Source of the DNA: Mustelus asterias
Taxonomy: Eukaryota
NCBI RefSeq assembly: GCF_964213995.1
Contig: NW_027590224.1
Location: forward strand, 496,001 to 560,000
DNA length: 64,000 nucleotides
Reading direction: 5' to 3'
Under the pieces are notes generated by a model. It was given only the letters and a program-made list of their open reading frames with translations. It had not been told where the DNA came from and searched no databases. Position 1 is the stretch's first letter. Each line of letters opens with the position of its first letter. Position numbers and translations under genes: made by a program. Shown here one piece after another: positions 18,266 to 47,635 of the stretch.

Positions 18266-19735
18266 TGTAATATCCGAACTGTGTTCGGGGTTGTGAGTTT
18301 TAAACAAAAAGAAATGATATGAGGCCCGATTTTACCATCAAGTTGCACCTGTTTTCGAGCACGAAAACCTGGTAAAGTCGGGCGTGAGGCGAGTAGCACG
18401 ATCCGTGCCCACCTCCATGCTTGCATGCATTTAAATTGACTTAATGGACTGCACGCCCAACCTTACCAGCACTTCCCCCTTTACCACCGCATTCGCCCAT
18501 CCTGAATCAGCGCAAAACAGACATGCTCCACAAAAGTCCAATTCGGGAGCTCCAATTAGTGAGGAGGTAAGTGCCGTGTGTCCAATAGCTCTCTGCTTGA
18601 GATCGATGGTCCGCTGCCATTCTGCCTGTGATCAGTGAGGGAGAAGGGGGGGAGGGGCCCACGATCAGTCTGGGTGGCGGGGGAGTGGGGGGGATAAGGG
18701 GGGTCGCAATGTTGTGGGGGTGGGGAATGTCTGTGGGGGCCAGGGGGAGGCATTGTTCAGCCCGGGAGGGATGTGGCAGGGGAGTTGCGTTCTATATATT
18801 TTTTTCTGCACATGCGCAGTTGGAGGCGTCGATCGGAGCTGCAGGATTTTGGGCGCGTTAAGCCCCGCCCACAGGCTTGTCCAGCGCCATTCAGAATTGC
18901 TGAAATTTTTTCAGGCAGAGTGCATATGGGGACGCCTAAGAACGGGTCTAAAAATCCGATCTGAAACATTCCCAGTTTCAAGTCCGCCCAGCACTTAGAA
19001 TCAAAATGGTAAAATAGGGCCCAGGCTTTGCACAAGTAGATTCAAACTAACAATAACAGATTTACTCTCGGAGGTCATCCCTGTACAGAGTAGAAACTGA
19101 AATTAAAAGCAGAAGCCTGTGAAACACCCTTAATGATGTCATCATCAAATCACTTGATCAGCTCTTAAAGCAATCATGCAACCAGTTAAATATATAACAT
19201 CCCTATCCTTTTACTTCTGTGGTCATGACACCAAATATTGTGGTGTTTTCAATAGGATCAATAATACTCTAGACACAGTACTAGGCATCATTGATTATTT
19301 ATACACAGTCAATAAGAAAGTCAATCAGGAGAATGTCTATTCCTCTTTGGTTGAATACGACATTTTGGAATGTGGCAATCCCTGATTCGAGAAGAATAAT
19401 TTGGAGCTTCAGTAGACACCTCTTTTGAACTAATTCTGTATCATATCACATGGTATAGTAGCAAAGACACAATCATATGACAACTCAGATTCAACTGAGT
19501 CTTCGCTCGTAGTACTCACAACACGAGGGACTAAATAAGTTGGTACTTCTGGAGATGATTCTGAAAAATCATTTCGAGATGACACCAATTGATTAGCGTG
19601 GTGTCACCGAACTAGTTCATCTCTGAGTAAGAAATTGGACGTATTATTGCTAAAACTATGGCTGGTATCCATTTCTCATTCGTGGCATAATTACACGCTA
19701 ACACGCGATCTGTTTGTTGAAATGAGTGTTGTCTT
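18266..19735 (-). mobile_element. Gypsy element B, 3' end (LTR 19199-18266, PPT, integrase C-terminus); continues at 38188-39665
   Basis: PPT aaaaggataggga before TGTTAT; minus-strand DRVLACNYATNEKWIPA joins across the ERV array to the integrase at 38188 onward. Confidence 0.65.
18322..19022. mobile_element. MITE-like element with 17-bp TIRs, inserted in the Gypsy B LTR
   Basis: aggcccgattttaccat (18322) versus reverse complement gggccctattttaccat (19022), 15/17 match; TSD unclear. Confidence 0.6.
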
Positions 19736-20375
19736 TGTAAAGGGGAAAATACAAGGGGGGCACACTCTAAAATGGCAATACAAGAAAGCACACTCTAAAA
19801 TGGCTGCCTGGCACATAAAGGGTTAACTGGGAAAGCCAAAAGAGCAGACACAGGCTCCTGCTGTTCAGAAAAAACCTAACAGACAAGCCATTTCCAAATC
19901 ACAGACAGTGACTCATAGCAAACAAACACCTCAGGAAGCCAAAGCCAAGGGTCAAGACATCTTTTAAGATAAGGAAACCCCAAAACAAAGAGCTTAGATT
20001 AATGTTAAAGGAAGGCGGGAAATATGAATGCGAGGGAACCGATTAGCACCTGAACGAGACGAAACTAGCCATTGATAGATACAGACATAAGGAGATGTAC
20101 CCATTCATAAAATGCTAAATGTCTATACCTGTTTGTATTCTTGTAAATATGGGGAAATGTACCCATTCATGAAATGCTAAATACTTGTAAATGTGATAAT
20201 CTTCGAATCACCGGTCTAACCCATTGTGTAAAGGGTATAAATTTGAACCGCTCCCGGTATACAATGGAGAGAAGGTTTACTACAGACCAAGTACTTTGTC
20301 TCTATGGAGCTCCATTTAATAAATCGTATTTTCTGAATCTCGAAGTCTGACTACTAGTGGATTTGTCCCACAACA
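19736..20375 (+). repeat. LTR 1 (640 bp; TATAAA 20236, AATAAA 20318)
   Basis: TGTAA...CAACA; about 3 differences from LTR 4 by eye. Confidence 0.95.
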
Positions 20376-20377
20376 AA

Positions 20378-20395
20378 TGGCGTAGTCGGCAGGAT
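20378..20395 (+). promoter_or_regulatory. Primer binding site complementary to tRNA-Ser (also at 28449-28466 and 33291-33308)
   Basis: TGGCGTAGTCGGCAGGAT is the 18-nt complement of the vertebrate tRNA-Ser 3' end ATCCTGCCGACTACGCCA (recalled), 2 nt after the LTR. Confidence 0.9.
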
Positions 20396-21125
20396 CCTAT
20401 TACTGGTGAGACCGATTGGCCATGGTCGCAACCGGGGTAGAGATCACGGAATCTGTGACAGTCGTACTGGATCAGAAAATACGGTTTATAAGGGGGAAAT
20501 ATTTGTACTGTGTATTTGTGATAGTATTTGTTATAGTGATAAGTACTAACTGCTGATAGGAATAAATAACTGTGATTTGTGCTGATCGACAAAAAGGACA
20601 AGGTAGTGCCTGTCTCAAAACCTCTGCCTTAGACTGGCTATTAAGAGCAGAAATCTGCCACGTGAAGGTCAGGAATTGAAGTGAGTGAGAGACACCAAGG
20701 GCACTAAAGGATTGTGAAGCACAAAAGGGCAGAAGTCGGTTTAACATCACCCTCTGTAGTGGCGAACAGACGCAGATGTGCCAGCTGATTGCATGAAAGT
20801 TTGAAAAGTTGGAAACTGTACTGTCAATGTGGTGAAAAGCGGGGCGGAACAGGAGTTTGATCAACTCTGACCTAAACCGAAATCCGGTGGAGAAGCACAT
20901 TGCCGAAGTGGTAATCGTGGAAGCCGTGAGTATAACTTAAAACCCTGTAACGGCAGTAAAACACGGTGTGAGAATAGCAATAGTGGCCGGGGGTAGTGAA
21001 GTCCCTACGGTAGTTAACACACTTTGCTAAGAGTAGTAATAGTGGCCGGGGGTAGTGAAGTCCCTACGGTAGTTAGCACACTTTACTAAAGAATAATCGT
21101 GGCCGGGGTTAGTGAAATCTGCGAA

Positions 21126-22175
21126 ATGGCAGATAGTGAAGTTAAAAGGGGATCTGCAGGTTCCCTGATTGAAATCTACATGACAGACAGGAAGGAGTTA
21201 ATAAAAAGAATGCAAAAGGATGGCTGGGATACTTCTCAAACCTTAGAGCAGCAGAGAAAGTGGATAGATAAAGTGAAAAGAGATAGAACAAAGAAAATAG
21301 GAATAATATTAACACATCAGTTAGCAGGTCTAATTGAACAAACAATTGCCTCTACAAGGAAATGGAGAGAGGACAAAGAAAGAATTAGAGAACTAGAATC
21401 CCAAGTGAGGGAATTGGAAAAACGAAATCAGGTTTTAGAAAGGCAAGGGGGAGGAGAAACTGATCCTCTACCTTCTTATGAGTCCACCCAGCAAGGGCCA
21501 ACGGCACCCTCAGAAGAGTGGGAACAGCTGGAACATAACTTAGCGCCCATAACTAGAGGGGGGACCGCAGCGCGACCCAAGGCAAATTATAAACCCTTTA
21601 CCCCAGGGGAAAGACAGCAGATAATGGCTTCCCTGGGCAAATTACAAACCAGAAGCGCGAACACCACATTCTGGGAGGAATTAGACACAATCTGGGTAGG
21701 ACATCAATTACACCTAAGAGACATACACCAACTGGTCAGGGCAGCCTGTCCAGCGGATAAATGGAGACAGGTAGTAGGTGGACCCGCTTCCCCTATAGCG
21801 CAGGATTATAGTGGGGGACGGTGGACACATGTAATCCCCCTAACAGCAGAAATAGATGCCCAACAGGCACCCTTCTTACAGTTTAAAGAAGAAATTCAGA
21901 GGGTCTTAGGGAATGCTCCCACTAACTGGAGCAGAATTACCACCACAAAGCAGCTAAAAGGAGAAGGAGCCTCTGAGTATGGGGAACGATTGTTCCGAAT
22001 ATACCAAGAGTGCTCAGGACATGAGAATCCAGGGCGAGGAGATCGAGCGTTCATCCAGGCTTTTAAGGATGGACTCTCTAGTTCTCACCAGGTCATCCTA
22101 AAAATGGGAGTGATTATGTCCCAAGATTACGATGAATTGGTAGAATGGGCTAGTGGCATACCTGCAGATGGATAG
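21126..22175 (+). CDS. gag: Gag-like polyprotein, 349 aa, uninterrupted (unit 1)
   Basis: ATG at 21126; coiled coil KERIRELESQVRELEKRN; late-domain motifs LPSY and PTAP; capsid MHR-like KQLKGEGASEYGERL; AFKDGL; no CCHC knuckle. Confidence 0.85.
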   Translation: MADSEVKRGSAGSLIEIYMTDRKELIKRMQKDGWDTSQTLEQQRKWIDKVKRDRTKKIGIILTHQLAGLIEQTIASTRKWREDKERIRELESQVRELEKRNQVLERQGGGETDPLPSYESTQQGPTAPSEEWEQLEHNLAPITRGGTAARPKANYKPFTPGERQQIMASLGKLQTRSANTTFWEELDTIWVGHQLHLRDIHQLVRAACPADKWRQVVGGPASPIAQDYSGGRWTHVIPLTAEIDAQQAPFLQFKEEIQRVLGNAPTNWSRITTTKQLKGEGASEYGERLFRIYQECSGHENPGRGDRAFIQAFKDGLSSSHQVILKMGVIMSQDYDELVEWASGIPADG

Positions 22176-23255
22176 GAGAGATCTTAGTTTTTGTATTTCA
22201 GTGTGTTTGTGAGATCTGGTAGCTTGTCGAATGTAGGTGGTTGTTGTTGTAATTAGATTGAGAGCAGGGAGCTCTTTGTTCCTGTGGAATGTTTGCTACA
22301 GGCAGTGGGTGCAGTGTATTGCACCTTGGTTTAGCCTCAGGGGGCTGGGAGAGTGTTAAAACTGTTAAAGATTAAAGTGATAAGATTTCTTGAATTTACT
22401 TCTGTTTTGAGTCAATTACAGTTTGGAAGAAAGAAGAATAAAAGCGATTGTCTTAATCAATGTTCTGTATTCTCTTTGAATGTTTTACACTCATCCCAGT
22501 CTGAAATGATAAGTTTGAATGAAAAAGGATGTACTGTGGAATGACTTTTGGAAGCTTCCATGTGTATGTGTGTGTGTGTTTAAACAAAGTGGTTGCGTGG
22601 ATGCTTTGTTGTTGTTTGTTTTAATGTTAAGAAAGGATTTAAACCTTGGAAGGAAGCATGTGCTCTTTCCTTTGTCTTGAAGTAGAAATTATAAGAGTTA
22701 GTCGAGGAGTTAAGAGAAGAAAATAAGTTATTTTGTGGAAAGGTAGAAAAGCAGGAACAAAAGACTGAGGTCTATGAATCAGTTTAAAGTATATCAAGTC
22801 AGTGAAATACAGTATTAATCGCAGAATATCGCGATTTGCGAACGTCAGATAGTTTAGTATCCTGAACTAGTTAAAATTATGTACTGCCATCGGAATTTCA
22901 TGAGCCATCAAGGTTCAAGGTTTGCCAAATATAAAAGCACTGCAAAGCTTAAAATCTAGCCAGTTAAGAAACCAAAATGTTCCTAATCAAATAACTGGTA
23001 TGTATTGTACCTGCTTTGATTTTGATTCGGCGCCTGTTACTTTTCCTAGAGTGCGGGGGTTTCGATCTGGAGCTCAGTTTAAAAATAGAAACGGCTTGAA
23101 TTAAAAGGGTTTGGATATCACGGTTACGATGTGTAAAGTGGTATGATACAACTGCCGCTTGATTATTTTTATTATACAGTATAGCACTGCCATATAGACA
23201 CAAGAATAACATCAAATCCTGAAAAGCCTTCACCCGCATAATTCGGGAGGCGGAG

Positions 23256-23999
23256 GTGGAAGTTGATAGGAGTTATAGAGAAATAGTAACTCCTAGAAAT
23301 GAGGCTTGGGTCAATGCCAGGAGGAGGGGTAAGAAGCAATCGGGAAGACAATCCCCTGGGGCGGTTCCCCTCCATAATAGGTTTTCGGTGCTGGAGGCTA
23401 CAGTTGAGGAGGAATCAACTGAGCATAGAGAGCAGATCTCTGGGGGTGAGCCGAGTGAGAAAGCTCAGGTGGTTAGGGGCTGTAAAAGACTGGGCCTTGT
23501 GATTGGGGACTCCACAATTAAGGGGACAGATAGGAGGGTCGGAACTAAAGGTAGGGACTCAGGGTTGGTGTGTTGCCTACCAGGGGCTGGGGTCCGGGAT
23601 GTGTCTGACAGGGTATTCAGGACTCTTAGGGGGGAGGGAGATAAACCACAAGTTATTGTACATGTGGGGACACACGACATAGGGAGGATAGGGGAAGGGG
23701 ATATTAGGCAGGGATTTATGGAGTTGGGGTGGAAACTAAAGGCCAAGACTGACAGAGTGGTTATCTCTGGACTCTTGCCTGTACCACGGGATAGTTTAGA
23801 GAGGAATAGGGAGAGGGAAGGTTTGAATTCATGGCTGAGGGGATGGTGCAGGAGGGAGGGGTTCAGGTACTTAAGCAATTGGGGCTCGTACTGGGGAAGG
23901 TGTGACCTCTATGAGAAGGATGGTCTACACCTTAATCAGAAGGGGACCAATATCCTGGGGGGTAAATTTGCTAAGGCCATGCAGGGAGGTTTAAACTGA
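23256..23999 (+). CDS. CR1 ORF1 C-terminal part, SGNH esterase-like domain
   Basis: VIGDS, VHVGTHD and DGLHLN SGNH blocks. Confidence 0.85.
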   Translation: MEVDRSYREIVTPRNEAWVNARRRGKKQSGRQSPGAVPLHNRFSVLEATVEEESTEHREQISGGEPSEKAQVVRGCKRLGLVIGDSTIKGTDRRVGTKGRDSGLVCCLPGAGVRDVSDRVFRTLRGEGDKPQVIVHVGTHDIGRIGEGDIRQGFMELGWKLKAKTDRVVISGLLPVPRDSLERNREREGLNSWLRGWCRREGFRYLSNWGSYWGRCDLYEKDGLHLNQKGTNILGGKFAKAMQGGLN

Positions 24000-24049
24000 T
24001 TCGGGGGGGGGGAGGGATCCTGAGTAGTGGGGCTGAAAGTGAGGGATGC

Positions 24050-26869
24050 ATGGATGGGGACTGCAATGCACGGCATTGCAGAGGTGGGGTGGAGCAGGGT
24101 TTGAAATGTGTATACTTCAATGCCAGGAGTATTCGCAATAAAGTGGGTGAACTTGCAGCGTGGATCAGTACCTGGGACTTCGATGTTGTGGCTATTTCAG
24201 AGACATGGATAGAGCAGGGGCAGGAATGGATGCTGCAGGTCCCGGGGTTCAAATGTTTTAGTCGAAGTAGGGAAGGAGGTAGAAGAGGGGGAGGGGTAGC
24301 ATTATTGGTCAGAGATTGTATCACAGTGTCAGAGAGGAGGTTTGATGAGGACTTATCTGTTGAGGTAGTATGGGCGGAGATTAGAAATAGGAGAGGAGAG
24401 GTCACCCTGTTGGGAGTCTTTTATAGACCTCCTAAAAGTTCTAGAGAGGTTGAGGAAAGGATTGCGGAGTCAATCCTGCTTAGGAGTGAAAGTAATAGGG
24501 CAATTGTTATGGGGGATTTTAACTTGACTAATATTGACTGGAATTGTTATAGCTCTAGCTCGTTAGAGGGGTCAGTTTTTGTTCAAAGCGTGCAGGAAGG
24601 TTTTTTGACTCAGTATGTAGACAGGCCAACTAGAGGTGAGGCTATATTGGATCTGGTGCTGGGAAATGAGCCAGACCAGGTGCTAGACTTGGAAGGTGGT
24701 GTGCATTTTGGTGATAGTGACCACAATTCGGTTACGTTCACCTTAGTGATGGAAAGGGATAGGCATGAACCTCGGGCCAGTGGTTTTAGCTGGGGGAAGG
24801 GTAATTATGAGGCTATTAGGAGAGAATTAGGAAACATAGGTTGGACTAGGAGATTACAGGGACTGGGAATGTCCGACATGTGGAGTTTTTTCAAGGAGCA
24901 GCTACTGCGAGTCTGTGATAGGTATGTCCCTGTCAGGCAAGGAGGAATTGGTAGGGCTAGGGAACCGTGGTGCACCAAAAAAGTTTCTTTGTTGGTTAAA
25001 AAGAAAAAGGAGGCTTATGTTCGGATGAGACGTGAGCACTCGGGTAGTGCACTAGAAAGCTTTAGATTGGCTAAGAGGGAGTTGAAGAGCGAGCTTAGAA
25101 GGGCTAAAAGGGGACATGAGAAGACTTTGGCGGATAGGGTTAAAGAGAATCCTAAGGCGTTCTATAGGTATGTCAAGAACAGAAGGTTGGTTAGGGCAAG
25201 TTTAGGGCCAGTTATAGATGGCAGAGGGAAGTTATGTGTGGAACCGGAGGAGATTGGTGAAGCATTGAACCAATATTTCTCTTCGGTGTTCACGCAAGGG
25301 GGCATGAATATAGCTGAGGAGGACACTGGGTTGCAAGGGAGTAGAATAGACAGTATTACAGTTGATAAGGAGGATGTGCAGGATATTCTGGAGGGTCTGA
25401 AAATAGATAAATCCCCTGGTCCGGATGGGATTTATCCAAGGATTCTCTGGGAGGCAAGAGAAGTGATTGCAGAGCCTCTGGCTCTGATCTTCAGGTCGTC
25501 GTTGGCCTCTGGTATAGTACCAGAAGATTGGAGGTTAGCGAATGTTGTCCCATTGTTTAAGAAGGGGAACAGAGACTTCCCCGGGAATTATAGACCGGTG
25601 AGTCTCACTTCTGTTGTCGGCAAGATGTTGGAAAAAATTATAAGGGATAGGATTTATAGTTATTTGGAGAGTAATGAATTGATAGGTAATAGTCAGCATG
25701 GTTTTGTGGCAGGTAGGTCGTGCCTTACTAACCTTATTGAGTTTTTTGAGAAAGTGACCAAGGAGGTGGATGGGGGCAAGGCAGTGGACGTGGTATATAT
25801 AGATTTTAGTAAGGCGTTTGATAAGGTTCACCATGGTAGGCTTCTGCAGAAAATGCAGATGTATGGGATTGGGGGTGATCTAGGAAATTGGATCAGGAAT
25901 TGGCTAGCGGATAGGAAACAGAGGGTGGTGGTTGATAGTAAATATTCATCATGGAGTGCGGTTACAAGTGGTGTACCTCAGGGATCTGTTTTGGGGCCAC
26001 TGCTGTTTGTAATATTTATTAATGATCTGGATGAGGGTATAGTTGGGTGGATTAGCAAATTTGCTGATGACACCAAAGTCGGTGGTGTGGTAGACAGTGA
26101 GGAAGGGTGTCGTAGTTTGCAGGAAGACTTAGACAGGTTGCAAAGTTGGGCCGAGAGGTGGCGGATGGAGTTTAATGCGGAGAAGTGTGAGGTAATTCAC
26201 TTTGGTAGGAATAACAGATGTGTTGAGTATAGGGCTAACGGGAGGACTTTGAATAGTGTGGAGGAGCAGAGGGATCTAGGTGTATGTGTGCATAGATCCC
26301 TGAAAGTTGGGAATCAAGTAGATAAGGTTGTTAAGAAGGCATATGGTGTCTTGGCGTTTATTGGTAGGGGGATTGAATTTAGGAGTCGTAGCGTTATGTT
26401 GCAACTGTACACAACTCTGGTGCGGCCGCACTTGGAGTACTGTGTGCAGTTCTGGTCCCCACATTACAGGAAGGATGTGGAGGCTTTGGAGAGGGTGCAG
26501 AGGAGGTTTACCAGGATGTTGCCTGGTATGGAGGGGAGATCCTATGAGGAGAGGCTGAGGGATTTGGGATTGTTTTCGCTGGAAAGGCGGCGGCTAAGAG
26601 GGGATCTTATTGAAACATATAAGATGATTAGAGGTTTAGATAGGGTGGATAGTGATAGCCTTTTTCCTCTGATGGAGAAATCCAGCACGAGGGGGCATGG
26701 CTTTAAATTGAGGGGGGGTAGTTATAGAACCGATGTCAGGGGTAGGTTCTTTACCCAGAGGGTGGTGAGGGATTGGAATGCCCTGCCAGCATCAGTAGTA
26801 AATGCGCCTAGTTTGGGGGCGTTTAAGAGATCCGTAGATAGGTTCATGGACGAAAAGAAATTGGTTTAG
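24050..26869 (+). CDS. CR1 ORF2, APE endonuclease + reverse transcriptase, uninterrupted 939 aa
   Basis: YFNARSI, ISETW, MGDFN, SDHN (APE); KSPGPDG, NYRPVSLTS, QHGF, DFSKAFD, GVPQGSVLGP, KFADD (RT). Confidence 0.95.
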   Translation: MDGDCNARHCRGGVEQGLKCVYFNARSIRNKVGELAAWISTWDFDVVAISETWIEQGQEWMLQVPGFKCFSRSREGGRRGGGVALLVRDCITVSERRFDEDLSVEVVWAEIRNRRGEVTLLGVFYRPPKSSREVEERIAESILLRSESNRAIVMGDFNLTNIDWNCYSSSSLEGSVFVQSVQEGFLTQYVDRPTRGEAILDLVLGNEPDQVLDLEGGVHFGDSDHNSVTFTLVMERDRHEPRASGFSWGKGNYEAIRRELGNIGWTRRLQGLGMSDMWSFFKEQLLRVCDRYVPVRQGGIGRAREPWCTKKVSLLVKKKKEAYVRMRREHSGSALESFRLAKRELKSELRRAKRGHEKTLADRVKENPKAFYRYVKNRRLVRASLGPVIDGRGKLCVEPEEIGEALNQYFSSVFTQGGMNIAEEDTGLQGSRIDSITVDKEDVQDILEGLKIDKSPGPDGIYPRILWEAREVIAEPLALIFRSSLASGIVPEDWRLANVVPLFKKGNRDFPGNYRPVSLTSVVGKMLEKIIRDRIYSYLESNELIGNSQHGFVAGRSCLTNLIEFFEKVTKEVDGGKAVDVVYIDFSKAFDKVHHGRLLQKMQMYGIGGDLGNWIRNWLADRKQRVVVDSKYSSWSAVTSGVPQGSVLGPLLFVIFINDLDEGIVGWISKFADDTKVGGVVDSEEGCRSLQEDLDRLQSWAERWRMEFNAEKCEVIHFGRNNRCVEYRANGRTLNSVEEQRDLGVCVHRSLKVGNQVDKVVKKAYGVLAFIGRGIEFRSRSVMLQLYTTLVRPHLEYCVQFWSPHYRKDVEALERVQRRFTRMLPGMEGRSYEERLRDLGLFSLERRRLRGDLIETYKMIRGLDRVDSDSLFPLMEKSSTRGHGFKLRGGSYRTDVRGRFFTQRVVRDWNALPASVVNAPSLGAFKRSVDRFMDEKKLV

Positions 26870-27167
26870 GTTGGAGGGTCACAGTTTTTTTTTTTTTTTT
26901 AACTGGTCGGTGCAACATCGTGGGCCGAAGGGCCTGTTCTGCGCTGTAATGTTCTATGTTCTAACTTTGTATGATATATTCATATACTATATTGTGTATT
27001 GATAAAGACATAATTATTTTGTGAAGTACTGTGGTGTAGCGCTTACACACAAACAAATGATCAAATTAGAGATAATGTAAGAGTACATCATATAAAGATC
27101 GGAACTGAATGGCATGTGATTTTAATTGGGAAAGCGATGTCTTTTGATAAAGATTACATACAAATGA

Positions 27168-27750
27168 ATGGATGTCCAATTGCAGCCAAAAAAGGCCAGT
27201 ACAAAGTGTTATTTAATTCACACTAAGCTTGCTATGGAAGGGGGATATATAGTTAAAATGTATAATGCACTAGCTAAAGACATACAAACATCAGGGAGAA
27301 GGTGGGCAGAGGTATTGCCCACTAGTTTAAAGAAATTAAGAGCTACCACAAACCGGACAACCGGATTAACCCCTTATGAACTAATGACAAGACGGGCGAT
27401 GCAATTACCAGAAAGCATCATAACAGGTGGGACCGATGTCGGTCCACTAAAAGATAAAATCAAAAGATACGTTCTGGACCTGAGCACCCAGCTAAAAGGG
27501 ATGCGCAAATTGGTAAAAGACAATCAGGAAATAAAAGACGCAGAGAGAGAGCTGGAAATGCTCCCTGACGTCCCAACAGTGGGAAGTCGCGTCCTAGTGA
27601 AAACACTACCCGACAAACCAGGGTTTGCACCAAAGTGGAAAGGGCCACATGAAATTATAATTAGTGGGGACACCTGTGCCTGTATAGACATAAGAGGAAA
27701 GGTGTCTGGAAGCACTGGACACAGCTGAAATTATACAAAGGAGATAAGTA
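27168..27750 (+). pseudogene. Integrase C-terminal relic (also 31513-32095 and 36414-36995)
   Basis: W..VLP..L..LRAT...TGLTPYELM and GPY/F-like PKWKGPHEI; frameshifted VWKHWTQLK end; no catalytic core. Confidence 0.8.
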
Positions 27751-27888
27751 GCTAAATTGATGAACTAACAGAACTGCTTTCCTCGACACAGGCAAAGACT
27801 GCAAGCAAGAGCCGGCGTGCGCGGGTTAATAAATGAAATAACTGTAAAAAATTGAATTGTAGTGTTAAGTTTTATAACTGTTGCGAAT

Positions 27889-28243
27889 ATGTATGTAATC
27901 GCGTATGTAATTGTATTATTTTGTGTTGTGGTAACCGTAAATCTGACTGGGCTAGAAGACAACTTGTTTTACAAAGCCCACATACATTTACATGGGAATC
28001 GTACCTGTTACATGGGTTGATTATACTCATTGTCATTATACTTGTCTGTTGTCTGACTGTGGGATGCCTTAAAGCCTGTTTTAAAATAATGTTGACAAGA
28101 ATTGTGCCAGGAGCCAGTGTGTACATCGAAGAAGAACCCCTAATGAAGATCCCCGAAGACGTCAGAAGAAATGAAGATACTGGAAGAAATAAAGACATCA
28201 AAAGAAGCAAAGAAGGAGAGAAGAACGAAGACCTGTATATGTG
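27889..28243 (+). pseudogene. Internally deleted env relic: signal-peptide-like N-terminus joined out of frame to TM/cytoplasmic tail (also 32236-32591 and 37135-37490)
   Basis: ATG 27889 MYVIAYVIVLFCVVVTVNLT...; second frame WESYLLHGLIILIVIILVCCL; upstream branch point plus acceptor at 27791. Confidence 0.6.
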
Positions 28244-28338
28244 GCTTTTGCTACCAAATAAACCTGTTGGACTTTAACCTGGTGTTGTTAAACTTCTTAC
28301 TGTGTTTACCCCAGTCCAACGCCGGCATCTCCACATCA
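28241..28338 (+). mobile_element. 98-bp Penelope terminal fragment replacing the PPT and U3 of the second LTR
   Basis: Matches 14508-14570 plus the tail ccccagtccaacgccggcatctccacatca seen at 47370-47396 and 48020-48049. Confidence 0.9.
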
Positions 28339-28339
28339 C

Positions 28340-28446
28340 GAGAAGGTTTACTACAGACCAAGTACTTTGTCTCTATGGAGCTCCATTTAATAAATCGTAT
28401 TTTCTGAATCTCGAAGTCTGACTACTAGTGGATTTTTCCCACAACA
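28340..28446 (+). repeat. LTR 2 remnant (last 107 bp, approximately R-U5)
   Basis: Matches 20269-20375; followed by the PBS. Confidence 0.9.
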
Positions 28447-29196
28447 AATGGCGTAGTCGGCAGGATCCTATTACTGGTGAGACCGATTGGCCATGGTCGC
28501 AACCGGGGTAGAGATCACGGAATCTGTGACAGTCGGACTGGATCAGAAAATACGGTTTATAAGGGGGAAATATTTGTACTGTGTATTTGTGATAGTATTT
28601 GTTATAGTGATAAGTACTAACTGCTGATAGGAATAAATAACTGTGATTTGTGCTGATCGACAAAAAGGACAAGGTAGTGCCTGTCTCAAAACCTCTGCCT
28701 TAGACTGGCTATTAAGAGCAGAAATCTGCCACGTGAAGGTCAGGAATTGAAGTGAGTGAGAGACACCAAGGGCACTAAAGGATTGTGAAGCACAAAAGGG
28801 CAGAAGTCGGTTGAACATCACCCTCTGTAGTGGCGAACAGACGCAGAGGTGCCAGCTGATTGCATGAAAGTTTGAAAAGTTGGAAACTGTACTGTCAATG
28901 TGGTGAAAAGCGGGGCGGAACAGGAGTTTGATCAACTCTGACCTAAACCGAAATCCGGTGGAGAAGCACATTGCCGAAGTGGTAATCGTGGAAGCCGTGA
29001 GTATAACTTAAAACCCTGTAACGGCAGTAAAACACGGTGTGAGAATAGCAATAGTGGCCGGGGGTAGTGAAGTCCCTACGGTAGTTAACACACTTTGCTA
29101 AGAGTAGTAATAGTGGCCGGGGGTAGTGAAGTCCCTACGGTAGTTAGCACACTTTACTAAAGAATAATCGTGGCCGGGGTTAGTGAAATCTGCGAA

Positions 29197-30117
29197 ATGG
29201 CAGATAGTGAAGTTAAAAGGGGATCTGCAGGTTCCCTGATTGAAATCTACATGACAGACAGGAAGGAGTTAATAAAGAGAATGCAAAAGGATGGCTGGGA
29301 TACTTCTCAAACCTTAGAGCAGCAGAGAAAGTGGATAGATAAAGTGAAAAGAGATAGAACAAAGAAAATAGGAATAATATTAACACATCAGTTAGCAGGT
29401 CTAATTGAACAAACAATTGCCTCTACAAGGAAATGGAGAGAGGACAAAGAAAGAATTAGAGAACTAGAATCCCAAGTGAGGGAATTGGAAAAACGAAATC
29501 AGGTTTTAGAAAGGCAAGGGGGAGGAGAAACTGATCCTCTACCTTCTTATGAGTCCACCCAGCAAGGGCCAACGGCACCCTCAGAAGAGTGGGAACAGCT
29601 GGAACATAACTTAGCGCCCATAACTAGAGGGGGGACCACAGCGCGACCCAAGGCAAATTATAAACCCTTTACCCCAGGGGAAAGACAGCAGATAATGGCT
29701 TCCCTGGGCAAATTACAAACCAGAAGCGCGAACACCACATTCTGGGAGGAATTAGACACAATCTGGGTAGGACATCAATTACACCTAAGAGACATACACC
29801 AACTGGTCAGGGCAGCCTGTCCAGCGGATAAATGGAGACAGGTAGTAGGTGGACCCGCTTCCCCTATAGCGCAGGATTATAGTGGGGGTCGGTGGACACA
29901 TGTAATCCCCCTAACAGCAGAAATAGATGCCCAACAGGCACCCTTCTTACAGTTTAAAGAAGAAATTCAGAGGGTCTTAGGGAATGCTCCCACTAACTGG
30001 AGCAGAATTACCACCACAAAGCAGCTAAAAGGAGAAGGAGCCTCTGAGTATGGGGAACGATTGTTCCGAATATACCAAGAGTGCTCAGGACATGGGAATC
30101 CAGGGCGAGGAGATTGA
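29197..30117 (+). pseudogene. gag: gag of unit 2, with premature stop (CGA>TGA at 30115)
   Basis: About 99% identical to unit 1 gag; truncated 43 codons early. Confidence 0.85.
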
Positions 30118-32648
30118 GCGTTCATCCAGGCTTTTAAGGATGGACTCTCTAGTTCTCACCAGGTCATCCTAAAAATGGGAGTGATTATGTCCCAAGATTA
30201 CGATGAATTGGTAGAATGGGCTAGTGGCATACCTGCAGATGGATAGGAGAGATCTTAGTTTTTGTATTTCAGTGTGTTTGTGAGATCTGGTAGCTTGTCG
30301 AATGTAGGTGGTTGTTGTTGTAATTAGATTGAGAGCAGGGAGCTCTTTGTTCCTGTGGAATGTTTGCTACAGGCAGTGGGTGCAGTGTATATTGCACCTT
30401 GGTTTAGCCTCAGGGGGCTGGGAGAGTGTTAAAACTGTTAAAGATTAAAGTGATAAGATTTCTTGAATTTACTTCTGTTTTGAGTCAATTACAGTTTGGA
30501 AGAAAGAAGAATAAAAGCGATTGTCTTAATCAATGTTCTGTATTCTCTTTGAATGTTTTACACTCATCCCAGTCTGAAATGATAAGTTTGAATGAAAAAG
30601 GATGTACTGTGGAATGACTTTTGGAAGCTTCCATGTGTGTGTGTGTGTGTGTTTAAACAAAGTGGTTGCGTGGATGCTTTGTTGTTGTTTGTTTTAATGT
30701 TAAGAAAGGATTTAAACCTTGGAAGGAAGTATGTGCTCTTTCCTTTGTCTTGAAGTAGAAATTATAAGAGTTAGTTGAGGAGTTAAGAGAAGAAAATAAG
30801 TTATTTTGTGGAAAGGTAGAAAAGCAGGAACAAAAGACTGAGGTCTATGAATCAGTTTAAAGTATATCAAGTCAGTGAAATACAGTATTAATCGCAGAAT
30901 ATCGCGATTTGCGAACGTCAGATAGTTTAGTATCCTGAACTAGTTAAAATTATGTACTGCCATCGGAATTTCATGAGCCATCAAGGTTCAAGGTTTGCCA
31001 AATATAAAAGCACTGCAAAGCTTAAAATCTAGCCAGTTAAGAAACCAAAATGTTCCTAATCAAATAACTGGTATGTATTGTACCTGCTTTGATTTTGATT
31101 CGGCGCCTGTTACTTTTCCTCGAGTGCGGGGGTTTCGATCTGGAGCTCAGTTTAAAAATAGAAACGGCTTGAATTAAAAGGGTTTGGATATCACGGTTAC
31201 GATGTGTAAAGTGGTATGATACAACTGCCGCTTGATTATTTTTATTATACAGTATAGCACTGCCATATAGACACAAGAATAACATCAAATCCTGAAAAGC
31301 CTTAACCAACTTTGTATGATATATTCATATACTATATTGTGTATTGATAAAGACATAATTATTTTGTGAAGTACTGTGGTGTAGCGCTTGCACGCAAACA
31401 AATGATCAAATTAGAGATAATGTAAGAGTACATCATATAAAGATCGGAACTGAATGGCATGTGATTTTAATTGGGAAAGCGATGTCTTTTGATAAAGATT
31501 ACATACAAATGAATGGATGTCCAATTGCAGCCAAAAAAGGCCAGTACAAAGTGTTATTTAATTCACACTAAGCTTGCTATGGAAGGGGGATATATAGTTA
31601 AAATGTATAATGCACTAGCTAAAGACATACAAACATCAGGGAGAAGGTGGGCAGAGGTATTGCCCACTAGTTTAAAGAAATTAAGAGCTACCACAAACCG
31701 GACAACCGGATTAACCCCTTATGAACTAATGACAGGACGGGCGATGCAATTACCAGAAAGCATCATAACAGGTGGGACCGATGTCGGTCCACTAAAAGAT
31801 AAAATCAAAAGATACGTTCTGGACCTGAGCACCCAGCTAAAAGGGATGCGCAAATTGGTAAAAGACAATCAGGAAATAAAAGACGCAGAGAGAGAGAGCT
31901 GGAAATGCTCCCTGACGTCCCAACAGTGGGAAGTCGCGTCCTAGTGAAAACACTACCCGACAAACCAGGGTTTGCACCAAAGTGGAATGGGCCACATGAA
32001 ATTATAATTAGTGGGGACACCTGTGCCTGTATAGACATAAGAGGAAAGGTGTCTGGAAGCACTGGACACAGCTGAAATTATACAAAGGAGATAAGTAGCT
32101 AAATTGATGAACTAACAGAACTGCTTTCCTCGACACAGGCAAAGACTGCAAGCAAGAGCCGGCGTGCGCGGGTTAATAAATGAAATAACTGTAAAAAATT
32201 GAATTGTAGTGTTAAGATTTATAACTGTTGCGAATATGTATGTAATCGCGTATGTAATTGTATTATTTTGTGTTGTGGTAACCGTAAATCTGACTGGGCT
32301 AGAAGACAACTTGTTTTACAAAGCCCACATACATTTACATGGGAATCGTACCTGTTACATGGGTTGATTATACTCATTGTCATTATACTTGTCTGTTGTC
32401 TGACTGTGGGATGCCTTAAAGCCTGTTTTAAAATAATGTTGACAAGAATTGTGCCAGGAGCCAGTGTGTACATCGAAGAAGAACCCCTAATGAAGATCCC
32501 CGAAGACGTCAGAAGAAATGAAGATACTGGAAGAAATAAAGACATCAAAAGAAGCAAAGAAGGAGAGAAGAACGAAGACCTGTATATGTGAATGTATGAT
32601 TGTTGGTCTGAGGATTGTCCAAGCTATAATCCGACCAAAGGGAGGGAC

Positions 32649-33288
32649 TGTAAGGGGGAAAATACAAGGGGGGCACACTCTAAAATGGCAATACAAGAAA
32701 GCACACTCTAAAATGGCTGCCTGGCACATAAAGGGTTAACTGGGAAAGCCAAAAGAGCAGACACAGGCTCCTCCTGTTCAGAAAAAACCTAACAGACAAG
32801 CCATTTCCAAATCACAGACAGTGACTCATAGCAAACAAACACCTCAGGAAGCCAAAGCCAAGGGTCAAGACATCTTTTAAGATAAGGAAACCCCAAAACA
32901 AAGAGCTTAGATTAATGTTAAAGGAAGGCGGGAAATATGAATGCGAGGGAACCGATTAGAACCTGAACGAGACGAAACTAGCCATTGATAGATACAGACA
33001 TAAGGAGATGTACCCATTCATAAAATGCTAAATGTCTATACCTGTTTGTATTCTTGTAAATATGGGGAAATGTACCCATTCATGAAATGCTAAATACTTG
33101 TAAATGTGATAATCTTCGAATCACCGGTCTAACCCATTGTGTAAAGGGTATAAATTTGAACCGCTCCCGGTATACAATGGAGAGAAGGTTTACTACAGAC
33201 CAAGTACTTTGTCTCTATGGAGTTCCATTTAATAAATCGTATTTTCTGAATCTCGAAGTCTGACTACTAGTGGATTTTTCCCACAACA
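32649..33288 (+). repeat. LTR 3, shared between units 2 and 3
   Basis: Preceded by PPT aaagggaggga and followed by the PBS. Confidence 0.95.
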
Positions 33289-34097
33289 AATGGCGTAGTC
33301 GGCAGGATCCTATTACTGGTGAGACCGATTGGCCATGGTCGCAACCGGGGTAGAGATCACGGAATCTGTGACAGTCGGACTGGATCAGAAAATACGGTTT
33401 ATAAGGGGGAAATATTTGTACTGTGTATTTGTGATAGTATTTGTTATAGTGATAAGTACTAACTGCTGATAGGAATAAATAACTGTGATTTGTGCTGATC
33501 GACAAAAAGGACAAGGTAGTGCCTGTCTCAAAACCTCTGCCTTAGACTGGCTATTAAGAGCAGAAATCTGCCACGTGAAGGTCAGGAATTGAAGTGAGTG
33601 AGAGACACCAAGGGCACTAAAGGATTGTGAAGCACAAAAGGGCAGAAGTCGGTTGAACATCACCCTCTGTAGTGGCGAACAGACGCAGAGGTGCCAGCTG
33701 ATTGCATGAAAGTTTGAAAAGTTGGAAACTGTACTGTCAATGTGGTGAAAAGCGGGGCGGAACAGGAGTTTGATCAACTCTGACCTAAACCGAAATCCGG
33801 TGGAGAAGCACATTGCCGAAGTGGTAATCGTGGAAGCCGTGAGTATAACTTAAAACCCTGTAACGGCAGTAAAACACGGTGTGAGAATAGCAATAGTGGC
33901 CGGGGGTAGTGAAGTCCCTACGGTAGTTAACACACTTTGCTAAGAGTAGTAATAGTGGCCGGGGGTAGTGAAGTCCCTACGGTAGTTAACACACTTTGCT
34001 AAGAGTAGTAATAGTGGCCGGGGGTAGTGAAGTCCCTACGGTAGTTAGCACACTTTACTAAAGAATAATCGTGGCCGGGGTTAGTGAAATCTGCGAA

Positions 34098-35018
34098 ATG
34101 GCAGATAGTGAAGTTAAAAGGGGATCTGCAGGTTCCCTGATTGAAATCTACATGACAGACAGGAAGGAGTTAATAAAAAGAATGCAAAAGGATGGCTGGG
34201 ATACTTCTCAAACCTTAGAGCAGCAGAGAAAGTGGATAGATAAAGTGAAAAGAGATAGAACAAAGAAAATAGGAATAATATTAACACATCAGTTAGCAGG
34301 TCTAATTGAACAAACAATTGCCTCTACAAGGAAATGGAGAGAGGACAAAGAAAGAATTAGAGAACTAGAATCCCAAGTGAGGGAATTGGAAAAACGAAAT
34401 CAGGTTTTAGAAAGGCAAGGGGGAGGAGAAACTGATCCTCTACCTTCTTATGAGTCCACCCAGCAAGGGCCAACGGCACCCTCAGAAGAGTGGGAACAGC
34501 TGGAACATAACTTAGCGCCCATAACTAGAGGGGGGACCGCAGCGCGACCCAAGGCAAATTATAAACCCTTTACCCCAGGGGAAAGACAGCAGATAATGGC
34601 TTCCCTGGGCAAATTACAAACCAGAAGCGCGAACACCACATTCTGGGAGGAATTAGACACAATCTGGGTAGGACATCAATTACACCTAAGAGACATACAC
34701 CAACTGGTCAGGGCAGCCTGTCCAGCGGATAAATGGAGACAGGTAGTAGGTGGACCCGCTTCCCCTATAGCGCAGGATTATAGTGGGGGACGGTGGACAC
34801 ATGTAATCCCCCTAACAGCAGAAATAGATGCCCAACAGGCACCCTTCTTACAGTTTAAAGAAGAAATTCAGAGGGTCTTAGGGAATGCTCCCACTAACTG
34901 GAGCAGAATTACCACCACAAAGCAGCTAAAAGGAGAAGGAGCCTCTGAGTATGGGGAACGATTGTTCCGAATATACCAAGAGTGCTCAGGACATGGGAAT
35001 CCAGGGCGAGGAGATTGA
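34098..35018 (+). pseudogene. gag: gag of unit 3, with the same premature stop
   Basis: TGA at 35016. Confidence 0.85.
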
Positions 35019-37547
35019 GCGTTCATCCAGGCTTTTAAGGATGGACTCTCTAGTTCTCACCAGGTCATCCTAAAAATGGGAGTGATTATGTCCCAAGATT
35101 ACGATGAATTGGTAGAATGGGCTAGTGGCATACCTGCAGATGGATAGGAGAGATCTTAGTTTTTGTATTTCAGTGTGTTTGTGAGATCTGGTAGCTTGTC
35201 GAATGTAGGTGGTTGTTGTTGTAATTAGATTGAGAGCAGGGAGCTCTTTGTTCCTGTGGAATGTTTGCTACAGGCAGTGGGTGCAGTGTATATTGCACCT
35301 TGGTTTAGCCTCAGGGGGCTGGGAGAGTGTTAAAACTGTTAAAGATTAAAGTGATAAGATTTCTTGAATTTACTTCTGTTTTGAGTCAATTGCAGTTTGG
35401 AAGAAAGAAGAATAAAAGCGATTGTCTTAATCAACGTTCTGTATTCTCTTTGAATGTTTTACACTCATCCCAGTCTGAAATGATAAGTTTGAATGAAAAA
35501 GGATGTACTGTGGAATGACTTTTGGAAGCTTCCATGTGTATGTGTGTGTGTGTTTAAACAAAGTGGTTGCGTGGATGCTTTGTTGTTGTTTGTTTTAATG
35601 TTAAGAAAGGATTTAAACCTTGGAAGGAAGCATGTGCTCTTTCCTTTGTCTTGAAGTAGAAATTATAAGAGTTAGTCGAGGAGTTAAGAGAAGAAAATAA
35701 GTTATTTTGTGGAAAGGTAGAAAAGCAGGAACAAAAGACTGAGGTCTATGAATCAGTTTAAAGTATATCAAGTCAGTGAAATACAGTATTAATCGCAGAA
35801 TATCGCGATTTGCGAACGTCAGATAGTTTAGTATCCTGAACTAGTTAAAATTATGTACTGCCATCGGAATTTCATGAGCCATCAAGGTTCAAGGTTTGCC
35901 AAATATAAAAGCACTGCAAAGCTTAAAATCTAGCCAGTTAAGAAACCAAAATGTTCCTAATCAAATAACTGGTATGTATTGTACCTGCTTTGATTTTGAT
36001 TCGGCGCCTGTTACTTTTCCTAGAGTGCGGGGGTTTCGATCTGGAGCTCAGTTTAAAAATAGAAACGGCTTGAATTAAAAGGGTTTGGATATCACGGTTA
36101 CGATGTGTAAAGTGGTATGATACAACTGCCGCTTGATTATTTTTATTATACAGTATAGCACTGCCATATAGACACAAGAATAACATCAAATCCTGAAAAG
36201 CCTTAACCAACTTTGTATGATATATTCATATACTATATTGTGTATTGATAAAGACATAATTATTTTGTGAAGTACTGTGGTGTAGCGCTTACACACAAAC
36301 AAATGATCAAATTAGAGATAATGTAAGAGTACATCATATAAAGATCGGAACTGTATGGCATGTGATTTTAATGGGGAAAGCGATGTCTTTTGATAAAGAT
36401 TACATACAAATGAATGGATGTCCAATTGCAGCCAAAAAAGGCCAGTACAAAGTGTTATTTAATTCACACTAAGCTTGCTATGGAAGGGGGATATATAGTT
36501 AAAATGTATAATGCACTAGCTAAAGACATACAAACATCAGGGAGAAGGTGGGCAGAGGTATTGCCCACTAGTTTAAAGAAATTAAGAGCTACCACAAACC
36601 GGACAACCGGATTAACCCCTTATGAACTAATGACAGGACGGGCGATGCAATTACCAGAAAGCATCATAACAGGTGGGACCGATGTCGGTCCACTAAAAGA
36701 TAAAATCAAAAGATACGTTCTGGACCTGAGCACCCAGCTAAAAGGGATGCGCAAATTGGTAAAAGACAATCAGGAAATAAAAGACGCAGAGAGAGAGCTG
36801 GAAATGCTCCCTGACGTCCCAACAGTGGGAAGTCGCGTCCTAGTGAAAACACTACCCGACAAACCAGGGTTTGCACCAAAGTGGAATGGGCCACATGAAA
36901 TTATAATTAGTGGGGATACCTGTGCCTGTATAGACATAAGAGGAAAGGTGTCTGGAAGCACTGGACACAGCTGAAATTATACAAAGGAGATAAGTAGCTA
37001 AATTGATGAACTAACAGAACTGCTTTCCTCGACACAGGCAAAGACTGCAAGCAAGAGCCGGCGTGCGCGGGTTAATAAATGAAATAACTGTAAAAAATTG
37101 AATTGTAGTGTTAAGTTTTATAACTGTTGCGAATATGTATGTAATCGCGTATGTAATTGTATTATTTTGTGTTGTGGTAACCGTAAATCTGACTGGGCTA
37201 GAAGACAACTTGTTTTACAAAGCCCACATACATTTACATGGGAATCGTACCTGTTACATGGGTTGATTATACTCATTGTCATTATACTTGTCTGTTGTCT
37301 GACTGTGGGATGCCTTAAAGCCTGTTTTAAAATAATGTTGACAAGAATTGTGCCAGGAGCCAGTGTGTACATCGAAGAAGAACCCCTAATGAAGATCCCC
37401 GAAGACGTCAGAAGAAATGAAGATACTGGAAGAAATAAAGACATCAAAAGAAGCAAAGAAGGAGAGAAGAACGAAGACCTGTATATGTGAATGTATGATT
37501 GTTGGTCTGAGGATTGTCCAAGCTATAATCCGACCAAAAGGAGGGAC

Positions 37548-38187
37548 TGTAAGGGGGAAAATACAAGGGGGGCACACTCTAAAATGGCAATACAAGAAAG
37601 CACACTCTAAAATGGCTGCCTGGCACATAAAGGGTTAACTGGGAAAGCCAAAAGAGCAGACACAGGCTCCTGCTGTTCAGAAAAAACCTAACACACAAGC
37701 CATTTCCAAATCACAGACAGTGACTCATAGCAAACAAACACCTCAGGAAGCCAAAGCCAAGGGTCAAGACATCTTTTAAGATAAGGAAACCCCAAAACAA
37801 AGAGCTTAGATTAATGTTAAAGGAAGGCGGGAAATATGAATGCGAGGGAACCGATTAGCACCTGAACGAGACGAAACTAGCCATTGATAGATACAGACAT
37901 AAGGAGATGTACCCATTCATAAAATGCTAAATGTCTATACCTGTTTGTATTCTTGTAAATATGGGGAAATGTACCCATTCATGAAATGCTAAATACTTGT
38001 AAATGTGATAATCTTCGAATCACCGGTCTAACCCATTGTGTAAAGGGTATAAATTTGAACCGCTCCCGGTATACAATGGAGAGAAGGTTTACTACAGACC
38101 AAGTACTTTGTCTCTATGGAGCTCCATTTAATAAATCGTATTTTCTGAATCTCGAAGTCTGACTACTAGTGGATTTTTCCCACAACA
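37548..38187 (+). repeat. LTR 4 (3' LTR)
   Basis: PPT aaaaggaggga at 37536-37546; TSD TCTT follows. Confidence 0.95.
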
Positions 38188-39665
38188 TCTTGCTCTCACA
38201 TCTCATCTGGCAACTTGAGATTGTTGTTGACGCTCTATCTCTGAGGTTTCTGGAGGTAACAACAAATCAAACATAGTTCGCAACTTTCTCTTGATCAACG
38301 CAGGAGAACTTTGGGCAGTTGCAGGAGGAGTTTTCTACAAGATACCAAAAAGCTTTTCACATGGCATGACAATCAACCTTGCTCTTTTGAAGAATCTTTC
38401 AAAGATTGTACAAGTCTTTCAGCTAATCTATTGGTTGATGGATGATAATGCCTGCAATTTACGTACTGAAGACCATTTACTTTCAGATAATCTTCTGTGA
38501 AGTGAACTGTGAACCATTATTACTAATAATCTGTTCCAGTTTACCAAGTCTTGCAAAGATTTCATCAAGTTTTTTAATGGTTTGTTTGTAGATCTCATGA
38601 TAACAATTTCTGGCCATTTTGAGTGTGCATCAATTCTAACTAAAAACATGCAACCCTCAAACGGACCAACAAAATCTACATCAACAGTCAGGCTGTAAAT
38701 GAGACAATGGTGATGTATTTCTTATTCATCTACGAGATCGACACTGTCCCTCTTTTTCTTCAATCTGAGCATCCAGATCCAGCCACCAAAAATAACTATG
38801 TGCTACTTCCTTCATCTGGACTATACCAATATCTTAGAATCTTAGAATCCCTATAGTGCAGAAGGAGGCCATTTGGCCCATTGAGCCTGCACTAGCAACA
38901 CTCCCACCAGGCCCTATTCCCGTAACTCCATACATTTACCCTGCTAATCCCCCAGACACTAAGGAAAATTTCAGCATGGTCAATCCATCTAACCCGCACA
39001 TCTTTGGACTGTGGGAGGAAACTGGAGCACTCGGAGGAAACCCACACAGACACGAGGAGAATGTGCAGACTCTGGACAGACAGTGACCCAAGCTGGAAAC
39101 CGATCCCAGGTCCCTGGCCCTAGGAGGCAGCAGTGGTAACCACTGTGCCACCATGCCATCCAATGTCCTTCATGTAGGTGTTCAAGAACTCTTCACGCAG
39201 ACTAGGAAGAATGATCATTCAGATTCCCCACAATAGACAGCCATCTTGGCTGGTGAACTCAAGCTTTCTTGGCACAGTTGGTTTAAAATCAGGATGTTAA
39301 TGTTGCGTTCCAGCTATCATTCCTTTCAATACCATATCCAATACCTTCCCCAAGACAGGGTCATTTCTGGTATGTTTCTGAACTTGAGAAGCTGGCACAA
39401 GGAAATGCTCTTCTAGCGAAAAGTAAAGAATATTAGCAAAACTAGTTGTTGGCATCTGCTCAATAGGTAAAGGTAAGTGTGATAATGCATCAGCATTAAC
39501 ATAGCATTCTGATTGACGATACTTTATATCACAGGAGTGTGCAGGGAAGATCAGTGACCATCTTTGCGATTGACTGGCAGCTAATAATGGTATGCCCAAT
39601 ATATGGCCCAATAGTAGTTAAGGGTGCACGGTCAGCCAATAATGAGGAATGATGACCACATAATT
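38188..39665 (-). mobile_element. Gypsy element B pol relic (RNase H to integrase), interrupted by a SINE at 38833-39160
   Basis: QRWSLI...DIKYR...NADALSHLP; DFVGPFEG.MFLVRIDAHSKWPE. Confidence 0.8.
38833..39160 (-). mobile_element. HE1-type V-SINE
   Basis: Head, V-domain and tail on the minus strand. Confidence 0.85.
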
Positions 39666-47396: not shown

Positions 47397-47598
47397 TTAA
47401 AGGGGTTCAGACAGATAAACACAGAGTCTGGTTCCTGTATTAAAGGGGTTCAGACAGATAAACCCAGAGTCTGGTTCCTGTATTAAAGGGGTTCAGACAG
47501 ATAAACCCAGAGTCTGGTTCCTGTATTAAAGGGGTTCACACAGTAAGAAGTCTCACAACACCAGGTTAAAGTCCAACAGGTTTATTTGGTGGCAAATG

Positions 47599-47635
47599 CC
47601 ATAAGCTTTCGGAGCGCTGCCCCTTCGTCAGATGG
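47599..47635 (-). ncRNA. Minimal hammerhead ribozyme
   Basis: CCAT-CTGACGA-AGGGGC agc GCTCC-GAAAGCTT-ATGG. Confidence 0.75.

Follow-up and report, generated by a model that had tools for sequence, protein, structure and literature searches.

How an endogenous retrovirus (ERV) without pol came to multiply is the question raised by a three-unit provirus array in Mustelus asterias, at positions 19736-38187 of a stretch of 64,000 nt (contig NW_027590224.1, positions 496,001 to 560,000; hereafter the window). A sequence-only reading had described the array as a gag-retaining, MaLR-like parasite whose pol had eroded. The explanation preferred here, with a probability of about 0.78, is that it is a decaying array of a pol-less class I ERV in which a foreign cassette of 1.35 kb stands in place of pol, which was copied in trans by its relatives, and whose cassette switched into a second ERV family. 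The layout, the copy numbers, the presence of partners, the shared cassette, the microhomologies at its junctions and the nesting in trees were observed directly; the template-switching step is drawn from retroviral biology. Genome-wide pattern counts refer to the 3.68-Gb assembly of the window (GCF_964213995.1).

A search with the Gag sequence of the window gave 116 scored matches at 90–100%, falling in two frame classes of the window's lineage, designated family A. Short-gag members consist of gag up to codon 349, a block of 1.35 kb, the last 486 nt of pol, and env, so that the cassette occupies the place of nucleocapsid, protease, reverse transcriptase (RT) and half of integrase (IN). A pattern spanning the cassette–IN junction had 104 genome matches, and the RT pattern of pol-bearing A had 91. 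All 40 newly sampled junction loci were without RT and had the same layout in differing flanks. Because these loci are dispersed and most of their pairs of long terminal repeats (LTRs) were 0.15–2.8% apart, pol-less A has been inserting over a long time, and the proposal of the sequence-only reading that the lineage kept replicating without its own pol is supported. Env sequence was physically present in 39 of the 40 copies and open in 6; gag was open in 15 and mostly deleted in 5. The check for a pol-intact partner was positive, with pol detected in 18 of 20 long-gag A loci, five of which had open frames for gag (~445 aa), pol (~1,186 aa) and env (~500 aa). Gag of pol-bearing A ends in a zinc knuckle, before which the 349-aa Gag of the window is truncated; a Pfam search gave the latter no name. 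Trans mobilisation of the pol-less lineage by these relatives, referred to below as helpers, is likely.

Many loci from the cassette search matched the cassette alone, and all 17 of those examined belonged to a second ERV family, B, whose cassette was 97–98% identical to that of unit 3 of the window array. A and B were 60% identical in Gag, 75% in Pol and 53% in Env, and the LTRs of B (~830 nt) could not be aligned with those of A. Pol was found in 8 of 12 long-gag B loci and a B pol pattern had 213 genome matches, compared with 221 and 143 for two B cassette junction patterns, that is, at least 364 pol-less copies. Loci matching a 31-mer of the cassette were sampled in genome order (68 loci; all on C1–C3 and the first 14 on C4). 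They were B-type in 65 cases and A-type in three, none with RT inside the element, the lone RT match (L160) falling outside it. In the 65 pol-less B copies gag was cut at ~533 nt (about 180 aa) in 56, ended at the A-type stop in two and was full-length with a zinc knuckle in seven, and env sequence was present in all and open in 44. LTR pairs of pol-less B were identical in 40 of 58 copies, and a 4-nt target-site duplication (TSD) flanked 49 of 58, with 41 distinct duplications. Pol-less B is a population of several hundred very young copies.

The cassette has a G+C content of 36% (47% in pol). Comparison with pol by tblastn gave a best E of about 3, and blastn and transition-tolerant local alignment with shuffles against the missing gag-pol of A and B gave nothing consistent; in the positive control, B pol against A pol, z was 32–78. 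Two z values of 3–5 near the 3' end of the cassette vanished at 200 shuffles, and no colinear pol homology was found even against older copies. Since no homology to the missing pol was found, the label 'eroded' given to this AT-rich block is unsupported, and by its sequence the cassette is foreign and non-coding. An Rfam search of unit 3 returned one chance match (E 0.96), and folding of unit 3 gave no segment below z −2.6 and, within the cassette, none below −1.2. Its source was sought among the collected loci and the window, and none was found outside A and B contexts; a genome DNA search with the cassette covered the best 40 matches, which were proviral among those examined, and a diverged host source would escape it. 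Identity to the helpers declines gradually at the cassette edges (94 to 74% in the gag tail, 82–86% in the IN head), and there is a single 20-nt likeness to the pol–env spacer of the helper. Both would suit a cassette derived through heavy erosion from the pol of an older family member, or one taken from a third non-autonomous element and brought into A and B by independent recombination, as in the recKoRV recombinants discussed below. We consider this unlikely, given the lack of colinear homology, the origin of all 68 sampled loci in A or B, and the A-type gag tail of B. In addition, the 404 exact genome matches of the 31-mer rose to 417 when three mismatches were allowed; as this is fewer than the 468 junctions of A and B, no large outside reservoir of the cassette is apparent. 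Two stretches resembling splice acceptors (a pyrimidine run followed by CAG) were noticed by eye, one at 22185-22200, where the cassette begins just past the gag stop, and another at ~27770-27790 between the pol stop and env; a pattern scan missed both.

How the cassette came to be in both families is indicated by the gag tail and by the cassette phylogeny. Long-gag pol-less B copies end in an A-type tail, the last 100 nt being 98–100% identical to the window and the sequence just before it 62–68%. This switch sits at a short shared motif, with one copy switching earlier, and the 3' cassette junction of B and the deletion that shortened its gag also lie at short shared motifs; the microhomologies seen concern B, at its junctions and deletions, and not the original capture by A. 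In a tree of all A cassettes above a length threshold and of B copies thinned from 78 to at most 37, A formed a deep ladder and B nested in its youngest part, near the unit of the window. Because B has the gag tail of A and its cassettes nest in the youngest A clade, the direction would be from A to B; the cassette likely moved by recombination, with a pol-less A copy as its likely donor. A donor of the cassette to A was searched for among the matches and collected loci, and none was found. Within A, gag 700–1032 divided pol-less and pol-bearing copies into two clades with one label change. In 5' gag and env the two interleaved, with 5, 5 and 8 label changes against a shuffled mean of about 15.

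Several points weigh against this explanation. Trans mobilisation is read from TSDs, LTR identity and the presence of partners, and the pattern counts take in tandem copies, segmental duplicates and uncollapsed haplotypes, with mismatch limits that vary. The FastTree phylogenies were made on short, similar and recombining segments, were midpoint-rooted and have many weak nodes. Two B cassettes (L075 and L076) lie outside the main B group in the cassette tree, and there may have been one transfer into B or several. A third, unsampled donor may have supplied both A and B, and gene conversion among integrated copies could mimic some of the helper exchange.

Under the preferred explanation a core of gag tail, cassette and IN head would have arisen once, in family A. 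Co-packaging with helper RNA would let reverse transcriptase swap in fresh 5' gag and env, which would thus follow the helper, the core descending as a separate lineage. One template switch with a family-B RNA would place the core in B, and later switches and repeat-mediated deletions would yield the B variants.

The RT of pol-bearing A was nearest to that of murine leukaemia virus (MLV; E 1.7e-71), followed by foamy virus (5e-51) and Ty3 (2e-37), and contains a YVDD motif. In most long-gag loci gag and pol share one frame with a single TGA between them (frames 1465-2835 and 2839 onward). The env transmembrane subunit is gamma-type, with Pfam matches to TLV_coat and GP2-like HR1-HR2; the best solved match of family-A env was filovirus GP2 (E down to 1e-14), ahead of syncytins and MLV p15. 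On these features the element is a class I (gamma/epsilon-like) ERV. GP2-like Pfam matches were also present in other A and B env frames (among L041, L025, L040 and L082).

The ratio of non-synonymous to synonymous change (dN/dS or omega), suggested earlier as a check on gag, was counted separately for changes common to at least three copies and for private ones, with segmental duplicates (L026, L029–L032, L034–L036), window units 2 and 3 and the units of a second contig described below (C858) left out of the A counts. Among 48 pol-less A copies, shared changes in 5' gag were synonymous (S) in 48 cases and non-synonymous (N) in 30, corresponding to an omega of 0.24, and private changes had an omega of 0.82; across up to 53 pol-less A copies private omega was 0.8–1.2, near neutral. 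Shared changes in env gave 0.29 in pol-less A and 0.30 in pol-less B (35 S, 25 N). In the lineage-specific gag 700–1032 omega was 0.36 (8 S, 7 N, p 0.04); none of the alleles common to at least three copies has a stop, and alleles absent from 17 helpers were 5 S to 5 N (p 0.13); there are hints here of a gag tail selected in its own right. The IN stub of pol-less A had 18 S and 21 N, and Fisher tests against gag and env (p 0.18 and 0.27; p 0.78 in B) did not set it apart. A synonymous excess like that of gag and env in a stub that is presumably non-functional means that their low omega can be accounted for by import from helpers; the check did return a low value, and selection on gag or env within the pol-less lineage is not separable from re-import.

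The idea of a MaLR-like parasite, in which the element's own Gag is selected, env is discarded and only Pol is borrowed, draws on these omega values for 5' gag and gag 700–1032, and on the seven of 65 B copies that regained a full gag with zinc knuckle. It is nevertheless improbable for a class I element whose Gag lacks the nucleocapsid, is down to ~180 aa in most B copies (56 of 65) and is lost in 5 of 40 A copies, and whose env was retained rather than lost. The synonymous excess of the IN stub is that expected under helper re-import, and the proportions of open gag and env in A (15/40 and 6/40) are near those of length-proportional decay. Nor does every copy need an env of its own in cis; in 14 of 65 B copies, found in different parts of the tree, env is disrupted by the loss of a single base (a sequencing error in a run of bases being possible), and a shared env deletion marks 10 pol-less A copies.

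A more attractive, still tentative, possibility is that the cassette is a module selected in cis (for packaging, export or stability), and that env is kept since pol-less copies spread infectiously as satellites of the helper, possibly across species. Its core (173–1281) was retained in 137 of 138 copies despite shared deletions in gag, IN stub and env, and no plain pol deletion without the cassette was seen among 32 long-gag loci (two interrupted loci being undecided). The open env of 44 of 65 B copies and its shared omega of 0.30 agree with this. The cassette is also covered by contigs of four sequencing runs labelled as other organisms (two studies); coverage is deep in three of these runs, and a contig of the remaining run has ~950 nt of cassette continuing into B-type shortened gag. 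No RNA run was among those listed as containing the cassette. However, sampling with cassette patterns is biased towards loci that retain it, and the cassette shows many shared substitutions along its length and neither an unusual fold nor an Rfam match. The B copies are too young for env decay and env is already broken in 14 of them, env-deleted A sublineages have spread, and the other organisms may be merely close relatives, whose cassettes may have come by shared descent as well as by cross-species spread. In a wider form, which we hold just as tentatively, the cassette would be a portable selfish core with a cis advantage in helper particles, having its LTRs, gag and env refreshed from the packaging helper and its family switched at least once; it would travel as a satellite that keeps env, is more numerous than its helper and may pass between host species.

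At the window locus, three internal proviral units lie head-to-tail within a single pair of 4-nt TSDs (TCTT; 19732-19735 and 38188-38191), as first described; all features are on the + strand except one repeat without assigned strand. LTR1 (19736-20375) is 640 nt in size, runs from TGT to ACA and has TATAAA at 20236 and AATAAA at 20318. It is followed by the primer-binding site (PBS; 20378-20395), TGGCGTAGTCGGCAGGAT, which is present in all three units and complementary to the 3' end of tRNA-Ser(AGA), in agreement with the predicted tRNA-Ser primer; it had nine exact genomic matches to the tRNA-Ser 3' end, and the three examined were all called tRNA-Ser(aga). Gag of unit 1 (21126-22175) is open for the 349 codons claimed for it, stops short of the nucleocapsid zinc knuckle and is itself truncated relative to its ~445-aa relatives; units 2 and 3 have a TGA at codon 307. 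The 5' part of the cassette (22169-23234) is separated from the 3' part (26963-27263, approximate boundary) by a full-length long interspersed nuclear element (LINE) of the CR1 type at 23235-26962, absent from the earlier description. This CR1 is 3,728 nt in size, with open reading frames (ORFs) for an esterase (ORF1, 258 codons) and an endonuclease-RT (ORF2, 964 codons); a few target bases are missing at the insertion, which has no clear TSD. The C-terminal IN stub of unit 1 (27264-27748, approximate boundary) and the env remnant (27889-28243) follow. A 96-nt fragment of a dispersed repeat (28244-28339, no strand assigned) then displaces the polypurine tract (PPT) and the first 533 nt of LTR2, of which the last 107 nt remain (28340-28446). 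This repeat, which we take to be Penelope-like, had 72 matches in 46 records in a search of the window and collected loci.

The internal region of unit 2 (28447-32648) comprises PBS, gag up to its stop (29197-30117), cassette (about 30240-31608), IN stub with a 2-nt frameshift, env remnant and PPT. A full LTR3 (32649-33288) is common to units 2 and 3. The internal region of unit 3 (33289-37547) consists of a leader with one additional 59-nt repeat, gag, an uninterrupted cassette (35141-36509; 36% G+C), IN stub, env remnant and PPT, and ends at LTR4 (37548-38187). LTR1, LTR3 and LTR4 are near-identical (5, 3 and 4 differences per 640 nt), within the range first reported. The sharing of LTRs holds for units 2 and 3, but at the junction of units 1 and 2 only the stub is left; likewise the cis signals are preserved in the PBS, TATAAA and AATAAA, but not in the PPT of unit 1 and most of LTR2.

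Pol loss, IN stub and env deletion are common to all three units, as the sequence-only reading stated. The env deletion removed ~1.14 kb with breakpoints at an 8-nt direct repeat, and its junction occurs six times in the genome, in the three window units and in three units on contig C858; the array flanks there agree with those in the window at 99% identity, and C858 is taken as a second contig of the same locus. As the junction exists only in these six units, all derive from one provirus. Env sequence persists in 39 of 40 pol-less A copies and in all 65 of B, and its loss in the array is a local accident of the window locus. On C858 the junction of repeat and LTR stub is present twice, so that the damaged junction was itself duplicated, and there is no full inner LTR.

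The array units differ from each other at 12–17 sites with conflicting shared derived states. Judged against ten dispersed copies, unit 3 of the window shares four derived sites with unit 1 only and two with unit 2 only, and the third unit of C858 has a 5' end like unit 2 but a unit-3 change near its 3' end. The pattern fits a history of repeated unequal exchange between LTRs and units. Two origins had been suggested, unequal recombination and integration of a concatemer; the former fits, and the mosaic make-up of the units with respect to one another speaks against the latter as a single step. The location of both array versions on unplaced contigs would suit a mis-assembly. That the array is such an artefact or a one-step concatemer is improbable in view of the conflicting differences between units, of a second contig with three units and another junction pattern, and of single shared LTRs, which fit unequal crossover. 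According to the available part of a study of HERV-K(HML-2), head-to-tail arrays with shared LTRs occur there at 13 loci with up to six copies, vary by haplotype and are explained by unequal LTR recombination (10.64898/2026.09.22.753638). From what is described there the window array does not differ in essentials, apart from the one junction that was damaged by a repeat and then duplicated on C858. Under repeated unequal exchange, one provirus would have lost most of env and been amplified by exchange between LTRs and units, and CR1 and the short repeat would also have struck the locus.

A second CR1 at 42191-45039 (− strand) of the window is older and ~79% identical to that in unit 1. Beside the array a decayed frame at 38428-38721 (− strand) presumably represents an LTR-retrotransposon integrase, although a Pfam search with it gave no significant match; with its flanks and this frame, the array sits inside decayed sequence. 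Further copies of the repeat that damaged LTR2 are found at 12828-12879, 14511-14570 and 46563-48222, some as inverted pairs. Tandem repeats occupy 1-1510, 6679-7870, 52549-53314 and 58317-60114 (units of ~33, 33, 51 and 34 nt), the first two being inverted relatives.

Although reverse transcription normally renews the PBS from the tRNA, many A copies elsewhere in the genome have one extra base in the tRNA-Ser PBS and many B copies two (L025–L080); the PBS of the window has no such extra base. Tandem arrays recur in both families, with seven RT-pattern matches in two runs at C26:19.02–19.13 Mb (~6.05-kb spacing), six at C1:4.81–4.84 Mb (~5.67-kb spacing) and pol-less tandems at L070 and L170. 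Segmental duplication has multiplied one pol-less insertion with open env, flanks included, at least six times with an unchanged TSD (L025, L026 and L029–L032, at C10:51–54 Mb and on unplaced contigs), and L033–L036 look like a second such set. Six unnamed Gag relatives and look-alikes of the Gag cluster scoring under 0.9 are leads only.

Plant TR-GAG is reportedly a pol-less family of recent activity that retains gag. The comparisons that follow refer to the accessible portions of the sources cited. BHIKHARI Bik-1/2 of zebrafish and chicken ENS-1 are likewise pol-less, recently active and gag-keeping (10.1101/2024.03.25.586437). MaLRs are class III (PMC6466679), and lokiretroviruses, to which Bik belongs, have an Env resembling the paramyxo/pneumovirus fusion protein (PF00523; PMC7947760). 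Assignment of the class I window element to lokiretroviruses/BHIKHARI was rejected, since no PF00523 match was found at E 0.5 and the env matches were gamma-type. Like MaLRs it is non-autonomous, pol-less and dispersed with TSDs; membership was rejected on the class I RT of its partners and the env of 39/40 A and 65/65 B pol-less copies. Bik-1/2, ENS-1, MaLR and TR-GAG have a full gag and no env, whereas the window lineage has kept env and has a shortened or missing gag. In recKoRV, recombinants of KoRV and PhER, the middle of an active class I provirus was also exchanged for unrelated sequence at microhomologies and the defectives multiply with TSDs, but there the insert came from an older element already known, and the recombinants described are confined to one family (PMC6112702); in the window lineage the core lasted down a long copy ladder and entered a second family, with env whole. 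ETn/MusD and a small ERV-beta4-derived mouse group, which are class II, without coding capacity and env-less, similarly have largely non-retroviral middles and a coding partner that mobilises them and is outnumbered, with no move of the middle between families described in that text (PMC6466679). Co-packaging with and region-specific recombination with helpers sustain the defective interlineage recombinants of mule deer CrERV, although these lack env rather than pol and recombine within lineages of one virus (PMC8662619). Non-autonomous grass pararetroviruses are also sustained by helper co-packaging and recombination, the parts shared being regulatory regions and not a core replacing pol (PMC5491270). 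In the open literature (most subscription papers and repeat databases lying outside this scope) we found no report of this family or of a pol-replacing block common to two ERV families.

Non-autonomous ERVs are usually described as parasites of one family that shed env while multiplying. High-copy ERVs tend to be env-less, a tendency that also appears in the accessible text of two of the above sources (PMC6466679; PMC8662619). Here a single pol-replacing block can be traced as it passes out of an old lineage into another family with 75% Pol identity and unrelated LTRs, in which pol-less, env-keeping copies outnumber pol-bearing ones. What is new is a non-autonomous core that changed its helper family while keeping env; the tandem array is ordinary and of little weight in itself. 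The low omega that can be imported from a helper calls for caution in applying dN/dS to non-autonomous elements. The two families provide a clean natural record of helper switching and inter-family retrovirus recombination in the germ line, and their hundreds of near-identical copies make it possible to ask what, if anything, the non-coding middle does in cis and how far an element without pol depends on env.

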